Shown: positions 7,778 through 11,440 of the stretch, piece after piece | How positions within the stretch are numbered: position 1 is the stretch's first letter | Layout of the letters: each line of letters starts with the position of its first letter | Assembly: GCA_963662795.1 (NCBI GenBank) | Contig: OY759746.1 | Coordinates: 350,331-374,330, forward strand | Reading direction: 5' to 3' | Length of the DNA: 24,000 bases | Origin: Spirochaetia bacterium | GTDB taxonomy: Bacteria; Spirochaetota; Spirochaetia; CADAEX01 | Position numbers and translations under genes: made by a program | The notes under the pieces: generated by a model | Databases searched by the model: none | The model's input: the letters and a program-made list of their open reading frames with translations, nothing else | What the model was told of the DNA's origin: nothing

Positions 7778-7852
7778 CGGGCTGTAGCGCAGTTGGTTTA
7801 GCGTACTTGACTGGGGGTCAAGGGGTCGCCGGTTCAAATCCGGCCAGCCCGA
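7778..7852 (+). tRNA. tRNA-Pro (anticodon GGG)
   Basis: Hand-folded cloverleaf. Acceptor CGGGCTG/CAGCCCG, D-arm GCGC..GCGT, anticodon stem CTTGA/TCAAG with loop CTGGGGG (anticodon GGG), variable loop GGGTC, T-arm GCCGG-TTCAAAT-CCGGC, discriminator A. Length 75 nt; CCA is not encoded. Confidence 0.9.
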
Positions 7853-7859
7853 ATAAAAA

Positions 7860-7894
7860 AGACTGAATCGGTTTATCCGGTTCAGTCTTTTTTG
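7860..7894 (+). terminator. Rho-independent terminator after tRNA-Pro
   Basis: A 12-bp stem agactgaatcgg/ccggttcagtct (one G-U pair), loop tttat, followed by a T5 tract. Confidence 0.75.
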
Positions 7895-7900
7895 TTTTGT

Positions 7901-8048
7901 GGATAGAAGGATTTGAATCCGGCCAGCAATTTTCGTGAAGCCTAATCCGGTGTACCTTTTTTATTATGTTGATCGAAGGATTTGCCCTAAAGGATAAAAA
8001 AATCCGGCCAGGATTTTTATGCGAAGCATAATCCGGCCAGCCCGAATA
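7901..8048 (+). repeat. Imperfect tandem array of tRNA-Pro 3-prime-end fragments, possibly scars of earlier integration events
   Basis: The motif aatccggccag recurs at 7916, 8002 and 8030, and taatccgg occurs at 7943. The two units (7901-7956 and 7971-8048) share gaaggatttg, aatccggccag, atttt, g[ct]gaagc and taatccgg. The last copy, 8030-8048, is identical to tRNA positions 7837-7855. Confidence 0.6.
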
Positions 8049-8077
8049 TAATTACTTATATTATTTGGACTAATTAA

Positions 8078-8107
8078 GCTATTCAAATTATATGAATAGC
8101 TTTTTTT
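8078..8107 (+). terminator. Rho-independent terminator following the tRNA-fragment array
   Basis: An 8-bp stem gctattca/tgaatagc with loop aattata, followed by a T7 tract (8101-8107). Confidence 0.75.
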
Positions 8108-8118
8108 AGTTTACATTA

Positions 8119-8160: not shown

Positions 8161-8161
8161 C

Positions 8162-8650
8162 ATGAATACCAACATATTATCCGAATTCAGAAATTCCATC
8201 AGAAGGATTGAACGTTTTCTGTTTGCAAGTATCAAGGATGACGGGACATGCTGCGGAGTTACTTTCAATGAATGCCATATTCTCATGGAAATAGATAAAA
8301 ACAGAAAAATTGTTATGAAAGATCTTGCCGACACCCTCGGCATGGATAAGAGCATAATAAGCAGGTCAGTTGAGGTAATGGTCAGAGATGACCTTATCAG
8401 CAGGGAAGAACTGACTGATGACAGAAGGAAAAAGAACATAGTACTGACCGGTAACGGAAAAAAGAAAGCGGATTCGATAAATAGTTATATGAACTTAAAA
8501 TATTCTGAACTGTTCAGTTCAATGAATGATGGAGAAGTGGAAAAAGTTATTGAATCAGCAAAAACACTTGCTGACCTGTTTGACAAATGGGTTTTATTAA
8601 ATGAAAAGTCAGACTGCTGCCGGGGTGGAAATAATGGATGCTGTAATTAA
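8162..8650 (+). CDS. MarR-family winged-helix regulator with vicinal cysteine pairs; putative thiophilic metal or metalloid sensor
   Basis: MarR core: TFNECHILMEIDKNRKIVMKDLADTLGMDKSIISRSVEVMVRDDLISREELTDDRRKKNIVLTGNGKK. It has an N-terminal CC (GTCCGV) and a C-terminal CCRGGNNGCC tail (codons at 8615-8644). The 3-prime end overlaps the hgcA start. Confidence 0.8.
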   Translation: MNTNILSEFRNSIRRIERFLFASIKDDGTCCGVTFNECHILMEIDKNRKIVMKDLADTLGMDKSIISRSVEVMVRDDLISREELTDDRRKKNIVLTGNGKKKADSINSYMNLKYSELFSSMNDGEVEKVIESAKTLADLFDKWVLLNEKSDCCRGGNNGCCN

Positions 8651-9638
8651 TAAACTTGAAGGCAGATGGGGAATAAAAGATTACCTTGGGACAATTATGT
8701 GCCGGCTGGGAATAAGAAGGCAGTATTATTCACAGAAACCAGGGCTATATTCCATTGGGAATCCTGATAACAAATCGCCTGTTTTTGTAACTGCCAATTA
8801 CAAATATTCGATAGATGTTCTCCGCAGGGCCGTAAAAAATACAGATTCATGGATCCTTGTTATTGATACAAAAGGAGTAAATGTCTGGTGCGCTGCGGGA
8901 AAAGGGACTTTTGGAACAGCTGAAATAATCAGCAGGGTAAATAAAACAGGACTTAAAGATGCAGTTTACCACAGGACACTTATTCTTCCCCAGCTCGGGG
9001 CTCCCGGAGTAGAGCCGGGAGAGGTAAGAAAAAATACAGGGTTCTCTGTTAAATACGGACCGGTTGAAGCAAATGATATCCCTGAATTCATCAGTAACGG
9101 ATACACTGCGGACAGAAAAATGAGAACCAAACAGTTCAAACTCAGGGAAAGGCTTGCAGTATCTCTTACGCATATGGTCCAGGGTCTGTTGCCAACAGCA
9201 GCGATAGCCCTTTTTTTTGTTCTTAGTGATTTTCTTTTTTCTTTCAAGGGTAATTTCGGTTTTACCGGGTTTCTTTCAATAAATATCCTTGCCTCACTGT
9301 CAGCGTTACTTGGAGGAACAGTTATCGCAGGAGCACTGCTGCCTTTACTTCCCGGAAGGGCTTTTTCCATGAAGGGCTTTTTCATAAGCATTCTTTTTGC
9401 ACTGTTCTTTTTTCAGATAATCAATTCATATTCCTCCCCTCTTTTTATTTTATATACAGGTGGTAAAATGCTGATTCTTTCAGGATGGATTGTGTATCTT
9501 GTCCTCAACCTGACAGGCAGCAGCACTTATACTTCTCTTTCAGGCGTTAAAAAAGAAATGGCGATTTCAATGCCGTTGATTACTGCAGGATCCTTTGCCG
9601 GATTATCAATGATCATTACAGGGGGAATACTCTTATGA
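8634..9638 (+). CDS. hgcA: HgcA, corrinoid protein of the mercury methylation system
   Basis: The diagnostic cap-helix motif NVWCAAGK lies at 8880-8903 (Cys codon 8889-8891), within SPVFVTANYKYSIDVLRRAV...WILVIDTKGVNVWCAAGKGTFGT...LILPQLGAPGV. The C-terminal half is a multi-pass membrane domain with LLPLLPGRAFSMKG. The ATG at 8634 has GGTGG upstream; an alternative ATG is at 8601. Confidence 0.85.
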   Translation: MDAVINKLEGRWGIKDYLGTIMCRLGIRRQYYSQKPGLYSIGNPDNKSPVFVTANYKYSIDVLRRAVKNTDSWILVIDTKGVNVWCAAGKGTFGTAEIISRVNKTGLKDAVYHRTLILPQLGAPGVEPGEVRKNTGFSVKYGPVEANDIPEFISNGYTADRKMRTKQFKLRERLAVSLTHMVQGLLPTAAIALFFVLSDFLFSFKGNFGFTGFLSINILASLSALLGGTVIAGALLPLLPGRAFSMKGFFISILFALFFFQIINSYSSPLFILYTGGKMLILSGWIVYLVLNLTGSSTYTSLSGVKKEMAISMPLITAGSFAGLSMIITGGILL

Positions 9639-9961
9639 CCTATATAAAAAATGTTGCCACACTTGAATACACAAAAGAAAAATGCACAGGATGCGGCATG
9701 TGTGCAACTGTATGCCCTCACGGTGTATTTCATGTAACAGGCGGAAAAGCAGAAATAATTGACAGGGACAAGTGCATGGAGTGCGGCGCATGCATGATAA
9801 ACTGCCCGGAAGGAGCACTAACGGTTAAGCAGGGAGTAGGCTGCGCCTATGCAGTAATAATCTCAAAGCTGAAAAGGCGGGATACAATAAGCTGCGACTG
9901 CGACAGTGATAATCCCCAGGCTCAAAACTGCTGCGGTGGAGGCAGCAGCAGCTGCTGCTGA
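9635..9961 (+). CDS. hgcB: HgcB, 2x[4Fe-4S] ferredoxin partner of HgcA with a Cys-rich C-terminal tail
   Basis: An ATGA overlap with the hgcA stop indicates translational coupling. It has two CX2CX2CX3CP motifs (CTGCGMCATVCP, CMECGACMINCP) and a C-terminus ISCDCDSDNPQAQNCCGGGSSSCC that ends in a vicinal CC, as in known HgcB. Confidence 0.85.
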   Translation: MTYIKNVATLEYTKEKCTGCGMCATVCPHGVFHVTGGKAEIIDRDKCMECGACMINCPEGALTVKQGVGCAYAVIISKLKRRDTISCDCDSDNPQAQNCCGGGSSSCC

Positions 9962-10312
9962 GTATTACCTGGTAAATTAGCCCAATCGCGCAACACATTA
10001 CTTTGAATATTTGAAAAATATCCACGGATAGTTTTTACTGCAGTATTGACGTATCGCAGCTTACTGTTCTGCCTGCTTTTCGGAAAAACACAACTTAATC
10101 CTTCTTTGGTATCCTTAAAAACAACATCACCGGTGCAATGAATTAATCCATTAATAAAGATGCGTGCAGGACGACAAAGGCTTTTATAACCATGCCCTTA
10201 AGTTTGTCAGTTTTTTTCTCTTCCATAACCCATGCATACTGGCAGTATCTTATTGACTATATATGGCTTTTTTGCCAAATTACCAATAATTACTTAAAGA
10301 AGGAGATTAAAC

Positions 10313-11350
10313 ATGCCGGAGAAAAAAATCGGCTTCTTCGCCAGATATCTGACTTTGTGGGTAGCTGCATGTATCATTCTTGGTGTTGTTACAGGTGTTT
10401 TATTCCCCCGGTTTCCAAAACTGCTCGGAGTAATGGAATATGCCAATATTTCAATTCCAGTAGCAGTCCTGATCTGGCTAATGATTTATCCAATGATGCT
10501 GAAAGTTGATTTCAGGAGTATTATTGACGCCGGGAAGAGACCCAGGGGACTGATTATAACCCTCATACTAAACTGGCTGATCAAACCTTTTACCATGTAT
10601 TTCATTGCCTGGTTTTTTCTGAAAGTGGTTTTCAAGGCATTTATACCTGATTCCCTTGCTGCTGATTATATTGCCGGCGCTGTATTATTGGGTGCAGCTC
10701 CCTGTACCGCCATGGTTTTTGTCTGGAGTTATCTGTCTGATGGCGACCCCGGATATACAGTTGTTCAGGTAGCAGTAAATGATCTCATCATTCTTTTTGC
10801 CTTCGCCCCAATTGTGGCCTTTCTTCTCGGCGTCAGCAATGTAAAGGTGCCTCTGGATACCCTTTTCCTTTCTGTTGTACTTTTCGTTGTAATTCCTCTT
10901 GCTGCAGGTTTTTCAACAAGAACAATACTCCTGAAAAAGCACAGTAAAGACTGGTTTGAAAATATATTCTGTAAAAAATTCGAAGGGATCACAGAAGCAG
11001 GTCTGCTTCTCACCCTGGTAATTATCTTTTCATTTCAGGGAGAGATAATCCTTTCAACCCCTTTGGCCATTGTTTTAATCGCAATTCCATTAATTATTCA
11101 GACCTACTTTATTTTTTTCCTTGGTTTTGGATGGTCAAGGATCTGGAAGGTCCCTTATAAGGTTGCAGCTCCTTCAGCCCTGATCGGCGCATCAAATTTC
11201 TTTGAACTGGCCGTGGCGGTAGCCATCAGCCTGTTCGGTTTATCATCAGGCGCAACCCTGGTGACAGTCGTAGGTGTTCTGGTGGAAGTTCCTGTAATGC
11301 TGAATCTGGTTAAAATAGCAAAATCCGCAAAAAACAGATTCCCGTTGTGA
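10313..11350 (+). CDS. acr3: ACR3-family arsenite efflux transporter
   Basis: AAGGAG RBS. Typical ACR3 sequence: FFARYLTLWVAACIILGV, IWLMIYPMMLKVDF, LLGAAPCTAMVFVW (conserved Cys), VNDLI. About 10 predicted transmembrane segments. Confidence 0.9.
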   Translation: MPEKKIGFFARYLTLWVAACIILGVVTGVLFPRFPKLLGVMEYANISIPVAVLIWLMIYPMMLKVDFRSIIDAGKRPRGLIITLILNWLIKPFTMYFIAWFFLKVVFKAFIPDSLAADYIAGAVLLGAAPCTAMVFVWSYLSDGDPGYTVVQVAVNDLIILFAFAPIVAFLLGVSNVKVPLDTLFLSVVLFVVIPLAAGFSTRTILLKKHSKDWFENIFCKKFEGITEAGLLLTLVIIFSFQGEIILSTPLAIVLIAIPLIIQTYFIFFLGFGWSRIWKVPYKVAAPSALIGASNFFELAVAVAISLFGLSSGATLVTVVGVLVEVPVMLNLVKIAKSAKNRFPL

Positions 11351-11410
11351 TGATTTGTTGTTTCCCTATCCATATATATTTAAAAAATGCCTGATATAAT
11401 GCCACAGGGC

Positions 11411-11440
11411 GGGGCTGCTGTTTCAAATCCGGCCAGCCCG
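11411..11440 (+). repeat. Direct repeat of the tRNA-Pro 3-prime end (attR-like)
   Basis: ttcaaatccggccagcccg at 11422-11440 is identical to tRNA positions 7833-7851 and in the same orientation. The preceding 11 nt resemble the variable loop and T-stem but are degenerate, so they cannot fold. Confidence 0.7.

Follow-up and report, generated by a model that had tools for sequence, protein, structure and literature searches.

An hgcAB cassette between copies of a tRNA-Pro 3' end in a spirochaete: a probable integrase-less islet

Introduction

Cis-mobilizable elements (CIMEs), as defined by Guedon et al. (2017; PMC5704250) and exemplified by those related to ICESt1/ICESt3 in Streptococcus thermophilus, retain the attachment sites attL and attR and are without integration and transfer genes. 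A locus of similar anatomy is found in a 24,000-nt stretch of DNA from a Spirochaetia bacterium (assembly GCA_963662795.1, contig OY759746.1, positions 350,331 to 374,330 of the forward strand), referred to here as the window. In it, the predicted mercury-methylation genes hgcA and hgcB, preceded by a marR-type regulator gene and followed by the arsenite permease gene acr3, lie between copies of the 3' end of a tRNA-Pro(GGG) gene. The block, at 8045-11425 (window coordinates; features are on the forward strand unless stated otherwise), is probably a CIME-like islet that lacks an integrase and arose through site-specific recombination at an att core derived from the tRNA.

The likeness to CIMEs has several parts. 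The cargo sits between attL- and attR-like copies, both of which are retained at the sequence level, no integration or transfer genes are present, and a tandem array of att-like copies is found at the 3' end of the target gene. As for CIMEs, movement would be expected to depend on the integrase of a related element that has integrated alongside (accretion). Unlike the case of the described CIMEs, no partner integrative and conjugative element or integrative and mobilizable element is identified in this genome, the core is 15-19 nt, the unit is only 3.4 kb, and the cargo is hgcAB with acr3.

Classical tRNA islands provide a second comparison. There, as here, the direct repeat is a displaced tRNA 3' end and the tRNA itself is left intact. 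This tRNA species, with this 3'-terminal sequence, is also the target in two tRNA-Pro(GGG) islands of other Spirochaetia (OZ223470.1 and OY764216.1) and on two viral contigs (L004 and L006). In contrast to those islands, the window unit has no integrase and has repeats of 15-19 nt, and it is located at a secondary copy instead of in the tRNA gene.

The gene order is also familiar. In the hgcAB neighbourhoods of McDaniel et al. (2020; PMC7438021), a regulator gene lies upstream of hgcA and overlaps it, hgcB follows, and acr3 is adjacent, as in the window; the window regulator, however, is a Cys-rich MarR rather than ArsR-like, and the att-like repeats and an empty allele set it apart. The same study found hgcA always on chromosomes, never near insertion sequences or transposases, and never on viral contigs. 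In our literature search, no paper tied hgcAB to a mobile element. Integron cassette arrays offer a functional resemblance only: small self-contained or promoter-poor modules are split by copies of a recombination site and vary among relatives, but the window has no IntI, attI or attC, and its site comes from a tRNA 3' end. An integron cassette array was rejected as an identity for the locus, there being no integrase in the window and the repeated sites being tRNA-derived direct repeats. Islands bounded by a tRNA are familiar, as are att-flanked elements that have no integrase; what is new here is the cargo and its exact delimitation.

The tRNA-Pro gene and copies of its 3' end

The only tRNA gene in the window is tRNA-Pro(GGG) at 7778-7852, on which ARAGORN and Rfam (RF00005, 65 bits) agree. 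It is the same as that of relatives L003, L126 and L127 in the parts compared (the last 60 nt among them). Its 3' end contains the 19-mer TTCAAATCCGGCCAGCCCG (7833-7851), an exact second copy of which is at 11422-11440 (0.00 expected from shuffled sequence). A second, overlapping 19-mer, AATCCGGCCAGCCCGAATA, occurs exactly at 7837-7855 and 8030-8048 (0.02 expected). A sequence-only reading of this DNA had placed the tRNA end and both of these same-orientation repeats correctly. The 15-nt core AATCCGGCCAGCCCG, which comprises the 3' half of the T-arm and the 3' strand of the acceptor, is common to all three places (7837-7851, 8030-8044 and 11426-11440). Two partial copies, at 7916-7927 and 8001-8011, are additional to those in the earlier reading. 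The 11-mer AATCCGGCCAG is found five times in the window where 0.4 occurrences would be expected. All five core copies have the same orientation and lie between the tRNA and a trmO-like gene.

The tRNA 3' end (7833-7851), which holds core copy 1 (7837-7851), is the source of the repeats. Directly after the tRNA, at 7853-7900, is a strong terminator hairpin (-25.2 kcal/mol, z = -10). The hairpin lies within a stretch of about 80-90 nt of the window that is absent from L003 and consists of this new terminator and partial copy 2 (AATCCGGCCAGC, 7916-7927); the copy is preceded by ggatttg, as are 74-nt units in L127 described below. At 7944-7962 there is a 3'-half remnant of the tRNA terminator (aatccggtgtacctttttt), which is intact in L003, L127 and L128. 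Partial copy 3 (AATCCGGCCAG, 8001-8011) has the version AATCCGGCAAG in L003, where a HicBA module follows it.

The left junction has a chromosome-side flank, atgcgaagcat (8019-8029), that matches catgcgcagca to the left of the empty-site core in other genomes. It is followed by the attL-like copy 4 (AATCCGGCCAGCCCG, 8030-8044). The match to the tRNA locus is exact as far as 8048; the four nucleotides aata after this copy are also found downstream of the tRNA. At the right junction, the cassette-side arm (11411-11425) reads ggggctgctgtttca, compared with ggggtcgccggttca in the variable loop and T-stem of the tRNA, and the whole right-hand copy at 11411-11440 matches tRNA positions 7822-7851 at 26 of 30 nt. 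The attR-like copy 5 (AATCCGGCCAGCCCG) is at 11426-11440, within a tRNA-identical 19-mer that begins at 11422; homology with relative L001 starts at 11421. The right chromosome flank is a TrmO_N-like gene (11445-11834, reverse strand), which is found beside occupied, empty and alternative sites alike. The cassette thus adjoins a tRNA gene, beginning 193 nt after it, and is bounded by direct repeats from the tRNA 3' end, with exact 15-nt cores and 19-nt overlaps with the tRNA locus on each side.

The marR-hgcA-hgcB-acr3 cassette

The 3.4-kb block holds marR, hgcA, hgcB and acr3, a promoter-like site and a terminator, and no other genes. Profile scores bear out the sequence-only reading that four genes at 8162-11350 lie between the last two full copies, and they identify the products as MarR, HgcA, HgcB and Acr3. 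At the left end is a terminator hairpin with a T-run (8076-8109, fold analysis). Then comes a promoter-like site upstream of marR (TTGACA-18-AATCAT, 8126-8155); L003 homology resumes at 8106. The gene for a Cys-rich MarR-family regulator (8162-8650, profile search) overlaps hgcA. Its product is 52% identical to the MarR encoded upstream of hgcA in a distant locus, L210. A CC pair near the N-terminal region (DGTCCGV) and a Cys-rich tail, SDCCRGGNNGCCN, are both kept in the L210 protein, and this conservation suggests a thiol-based metal sensor specific to hgcAB operons.

The hgcA gene, for the corrinoid protein, is at 8634-9638 (NF040863, 359.6 bits, cutoff 275), and its translation contains the cap-helix motif NVWCAAGK and a hydrophobic C-terminal half. 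A 334-aa database form of HgcA on a 3.93-Mb contig is 100% identical to that of the window. The hgcB gene, for a 2x[4Fe-4S] ferredoxin, is at 9635-9961 (NF040864, 116.4 bits, cutoff 99); it overlaps the hgcA stop codon, and the protein ends in SSSCC. By family and motif, these two genes are predicted to be the mercury-methylation pair. The acr3 arsenite efflux permease gene is at 10313-11350 (TIGR00832, 386.7 bits, cutoff 282.8). It has no terminator of its own, and the hairpin at 8076-8109 is the only one in the cassette. The sequence immediately 5' of acr3 is conserved between the window and L003. Elsewhere in the hgcB-acr3 spacer, about 195 nt at 10042-10236 have no counterpart in L003, where 62 nt are present.

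No integrase, excisionase or resolvase was found among the open reading frames (ORFs) of the window in Pfam scans of all the larger ones, so that the cassette, unlike classical tRNA islands, encodes no integrase. Nor is there a transposase between the repeats. In this respect Pfam and tblastn searches confirm what had been read from the sequence alone. The only transposase of the window belongs to an IS4-family element at 13488-14762, outside the unit, and no inverted repeats are present at the cassette ends. A composite or otherwise insertion sequence (IS)-mediated transposon was rejected on these grounds (a single IS4-family copy 2 kb outside the unit, no terminal inverted repeats), as was mobility of the cassette through the IS4 element, of which there is one copy only.

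Occupied, empty and alternative sites in relatives

Four lineages can be compared. Lineage A consists of the window and L126 (a 3.86-Mb genome 99% identical to the window), lineage B of L003 (a Spirochaetales metagenome-assembled genome (MAG), GCA_024233785.1) and L002, lineage C of L127 (a Spirochaetia MAG contig, JGI/NCBI) and L128 (an independent Logan assembly), and lineage D of L001 and L221, both from ENA sample ERZ21862645. Identities over 1,735 nt of four flanking genes are 91.2% for A-D, 88.8% for A-B and 89.3% for B-D; lineage C is 83-84% identical to the other three and is the outgroup by midpoint rooting. The cassette is polymorphic among these genomes: it is present in L003, L002 and L126 and missing from L127 and L128, whose site is empty, and L001 carries something different.

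Lineage C lacks all four cassette genes and has, as in the window, the ABM gene and tRNA-Pro on one side and TrmO on the other. In the window, the left junction consists of atgcgaagcat, the core AATCCGGCCAGCCCG and the right flank aatataattactt, and the right junction of ggggctgctgtttca, AATCCGGCCAGCCCG and gtatttactcgagc. In L127 and L128 there is a single junction, catgcgcagca followed by the core TGTCCGGCCGGCCCG and the flank gtattcactcaagc, which corresponds to the left flank of window copy 4 joined through a single core to the right flank of copy 5. This is the pattern expected of an unoccupied site. The empty-site core differs from the tRNA core at 3 of 15 positions and is present in two independent assemblies, and so the junction is not an assembly collapse of identical repeats. 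The sequence-only reading had proposed looking for an empty site in which tRNA-Pro is followed directly by trmO. The empty site exists and is precise, but between the tRNA and trmO about 230 nt intervene, with tRNA-end copies and then the tRNA terminator. Since this material is still held by the empty site, the cassette sits in a secondary tRNA-derived site inside an array of tRNA-end copies.

Lineage D shows a third state. Homology between L001 and the window starts at 11421, 1 nt before the exact 19-mer, and beyond the 19-mer L001 has a different MarR-family gene where the window has acr3. The L001 junction is a second, independent event at the same core. The breakpoints of two metagenome contigs, L221 and L215, fall inside or at the 3' end of the tRNA, which is counted in favour of recombination there.

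Both cores are intact and tRNA-identical in the window and in L126. Lineage B keeps the cassette with a decayed right-hand copy (16/19 in L003, 13/19 in L002). A decayed copy 4 was also considered for L003; the alignment is no better than with shuffled sequence, and the idea was dropped. L003 has an extra 700-nt HicBA module after partial copy 3, and in L127 there are two tandem units of 74 nt with an exact core at the end of each. Modules bounded by the core therefore come and go, and the region is an array of tRNA-end copies in which the modules between copies differ by lineage. These junctions in relatives support the earlier interpretation of the tRNA-end duplicates as an att footprint.

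Further variation is seen around the tRNA. In L127, the 74-nt tandem repeat (523-693, 2.3 copies, 98% identical) directly follows tRNA-Pro, and its units end in ccggatttgAATCCGGCCAGCCCGA, a variant T-arm and acceptor end; they could be scars of tiny elements or a product of unequal crossing-over. L003 has an 832-nt insertion upstream of the tRNA (7741-8572), in which lies an ORF of 172 aa, Cys-rich and with a PAS domain. In lineage B the promoter region of the tRNA is unlike that of the window, and the tRNA locus is therefore variable on both sides. A metagenome DNA scan with the conserved TrmO 3' end (26 nt) gave no match.

The same tRNA end as an integration target

A 30-mer scan of species-representative genomes returned matches that, among those listed, are mostly from Acidimicrobiia, and no spirochaete block syntenic with the window. 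Among the same listed matches there are two clear tRNA-end-bounded islands in other Spirochaetia. In Sphaerochaetaceae contig OZ223470.1, the full tRNA and a 3' fragment of about 50 nt are 13.5 kb apart in the same orientation, and a gene for a 390-aa tyrosine integrase (PF14659, PF13102, PF00589) adjoins the tRNA. A 429-aa ORF at the distal end of this island was considered as an integrase and set aside, having no Pfam match. In Spirochaetia contig OY764216.1, 113 kb separate the tRNA from the fragment. Beside the tRNA is the start of an ORF with an integrase-like N-terminus, and after the fragment comes a flank that in relatives L098 and L091 is found directly after the tRNA. Among the listed matches, integrase-bearing islands at this tRNA were found only in other spirochaete families.

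Only 3 of 2.9 million viral contigs contain the 19-mer, in each case as tRNA-Pro sequence: one phage has a full tRNA-Pro gene, and L004 and L006 have tRNA-Pro(GGG) 3' halves beside PF00589 integrases. In blocks of up to 8 kb from other spirochaete genomes it is present in a single copy (28 of 28), and within the window every copy falls between the tRNA and trmO. The viral integrase-adjacent fragments, the islands and the single copies in the 28 blocks point to an att-type sequence; the repeat is not the dispersed genomic one that would have undone the sequence-only reading.

Proposed mechanism

We infer that a tyrosine recombinase, and not deletion between short repeats, made the junctions, and that the cassette may still be able to move. 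The integrase would act in trans and come from a separate element, similar to those that target this tRNA end in other Spirochaetia. Site-specific recombination between a circularised cassette and an att site derived from the tRNA would give attL as B-O-P' and attR as P-O-B', with the 15-nt core as O; the reverse reaction would remove the block precisely. The circular junction, or attP, would read ggggctgctgtttca-AATCCGGCCAGCCCG-aatataatt and would imitate the tRNA end and the 4 nt downstream of it at 30 of 34 nt. The tRNA-like right arm (26/30 nt) would be expected of an attP that restores the tRNA on integration. In the circle, the terminator at 8076-8109 would follow acr3. The only terminator lies at the left end of the cassette and acr3 has none, which hints that the operon may be circularly permuted.

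A broader version, offered tentatively and on balance unlikely, is that the stretch downstream of tRNA-Pro is a multi-site landing pad for integrase-less modules, with the recombinase encoded elsewhere and the hgcAB cassette still mobilisable. In it, marR-hgcAB-acr3, HicBA, the MarR-like gene of L001 and the 74-nt mini-units would all be modules inserted, excised and exchanged at core copies.

Alternative origins and residence of the cassette

The most durable alternative supposes that the copies are old scars of unrelated integrations, that the cassette was simply resident, and that lineage C lost it by RecA-dependent or slippage deletion between repeats of 15-19 nt. In that case the cassette would never have served as a unit for any recombinase and would not be mobilisable. 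We regard this as possible, if rather unlikely. Several of the points against recombinase-made junctions also speak for it. Precise deletion between the 15-nt direct repeats would yield the same empty site, down to the exact junction of L127 and L128. The cassette co-diverges with its flanks: its genes are 87-93% identical between lineages A and B, compared with 84-93% for flanking genes. Its composition is host-like. The cassette GC content is 0.406 (about 0.41), against 0.44-0.46 in core flanks, tetranucleotide frequencies correlate with those of the flanks at r = 0.75-0.90, and GC at third codon positions is within the range of neighbouring genes, all of this measured on short segments that give low power. 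A compositional anomaly, such as is looked for in tRNA islands, was accordingly dropped as a feature of the cassette, and the comparison of 8049-11421 with the flanks proposed in the sequence-only reading turned up none.

No integrase remnants were found in the window or related loci by tblastn with two spirochaete integrase fragments, and a homologue of the Sphaerochaetaceae integrase was not among the matches listed for the source genome, which is weak evidence since the search was word-based. Also against recombinase-made junctions, repeats in the integrase-bearing islands are about 45-50 nt long compared with 15-19 nt in the window. In lineage B the copies are decaying as neutral DNA would, and in L003 no copy is recognisable at the position of copy 4 (8030). 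In searches by tblastn and sequence pattern, hgcA was found on no plasmid, phage or IMG/VR viral contig, and neither a circle nor an attP was seen. Whether the ancestor of A, B and D gained the block or C lost it is judged from a midpoint-rooted 1.7 kb.

Loss from an otherwise passive resident leaves other observations unexplained: the different gene of L001 at the exact 19-mer, with its break 1 nt before; the cassette-side arm of copy 5, which imitates the tRNA over 30 nt; and the further core-bounded modules, HicBA and the 74-nt units. Moreover, the empty lineage is the outgroup by midpoint rooting, and gain is at least as parsimonious as loss.

A second alternative takes 7853-11421 as one ancient island in the tRNA gene, with attL at the tRNA and attR at copy 5, whose integrase was deleted and whose interior was later rearranged. 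Copy 5 does have the anatomy of a classical attR, its left arm resembling the tRNA and its right flank being native, and the layout is that of the integrase-bearing islands of other Spirochaetia. We nevertheless consider this improbable. L127 and L128 keep the terminator and the left flank of copy 4 and lack only the segment between copies 4 and 5, and the unit that varies between genomes is therefore the inner one.

That the copies are functional RNA or DNA motifs under selection (tRNA-like processing signals, terminator parts) and border the cassette incidentally is very improbable: a 6-bp stem (gggctg/cagccc) can form around copy 5 and the copies do fall between genes, where transcription units converge or follow one another, but the copy 5 region folds no better than shuffled sequence (z = -0.17 and +0.30 on the two strands), which led us to reject an RNA-structure role for it, copy 5 is unconserved in L003 and L002 despite their intact cassettes, and Rfam detects only the true tRNA.

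Site-specific recombination at the tRNA-derived core remains the preferred origin of the block. The divergence of the cassette falls inside the range of the flanking genes, which indicates that it has been resident since before the split of lineages A and B and was inherited vertically from their common ancestor; no sign of recent transfer or of exchange between lineages is seen. In the genomes examined, it behaves like a unit of long residence and vertical descent. Where HgcA is 58-60% identical, the order marR-hgcA-hgcB is kept in unrelated contexts without tRNA or repeats. A metagenome scan for HgcA returned distant loci only (42-58% identity), of which 3 of 80 have any tRNA nearby and 0 of 80 a tRNA-Pro; on these counts the tRNA link is specific to the lineage of the window. 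The suggestion of the sequence-only reading that this cassette would be a vehicle for hgcAB transfer gains no support from its co-divergence with the flanks, its host-like composition and the distant marR-hgcAB loci that have neither tRNA nor repeats.

Other features of the window

The IS4-family element at 13488-14762 is complete: it encodes a 385-aa DDE transposase containing DUF4372 (NF033592, 279.5 bits), and its 18-nt terminal inverted repeats (CATAGGTGTCCAAAACAA) are perfect. L126 is without 1,268 nt to the left of it (window 12220-13487, part of a methyltransferase gene and a CAP-domain gene), which looks like an IS-adjacent deletion. A second variable spot lies between the same methyltransferase and M20 peptidase genes in two genomes. 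The window version (12733-16417) has a low GC content of 0.33 and holds the CAP-domain gene, the IS4 element and an HNH_2 endonuclease gene, and that of L001 (608-8083) encodes a 566-aa methyltransferase-HNH protein and a 1,632-aa DEAD/UvrD helicase. This spot looks like a defence-island hotspot.

The methyltransferase gene itself (11902-12690, reverse strand) encodes an S-adenosylmethionine-dependent enzyme. It is two genes outside the cassette and is still beside the empty site in L128. Its product is 30% identical over the full length (E 7e-36) to that of L210 9290-10006, which abuts hgcB in a marR-hgcAB locus, and has a sub-threshold match to the corrinoid-protein-associated CpaM (NF043040, 57.5 bits, cutoff 180). 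A functional link to hgcAB is possible. In L126 the neighbouring trmO-like gene (12815-13205, equivalent to window 11445-11834) has a 1-nt insertion (391 vs 390 nt), is called at 71 aa and is probably a pseudogene.

Upstream of the tRNA, a nucleotidyltransferase/HepT-like fusion gene (6331-7186, reverse strand) is intact at 284 aa in L003, L127 and L221 and split into ORFs of 230 and 80 aa in the window and 103 and 116 aa in L126. It is probably a decaying gene of toxin-antitoxin type. A 1,158-aa protein (2337-5813, reverse strand) had no Pfam hit in the scan; its L003 orthologue has a precomputed PF26300 assignment (PPi-type phosphoenolpyruvate carboxykinase lobe 2), and amino-acid identity between lineages A and B is 96%. 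At the other end of the window, a NiCo riboswitch (20179-20244; RF02683, 39.3 bits, gathering threshold 37) lies 5' of a cation-diffusion-facilitator gene (20201-21166) and overlaps its start.

Significance

The patchy distribution of hgcAB has long been ascribed to horizontal transfer and gene loss. To our knowledge, no carrier of hgcAB has been identified. The block described here would be a discrete unit of gain and loss of the integration-site type, and it appears to be the first physically delimited hgcAB unit found. The presence of regulator, hgcAB and acr3 as one block is relevant to the suggestion that hgcAB is linked with metal(loid) detoxification. If the landing-pad idea proved true, the cassette would be the first identified physical vehicle for the horizontal spread of mercury methylation. 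The locus offers exact boundaries for an hgcAB unit, an empty allele in a relative and a plausible recombination mechanism, and together these make the gain and loss of mercury methylation directly testable.

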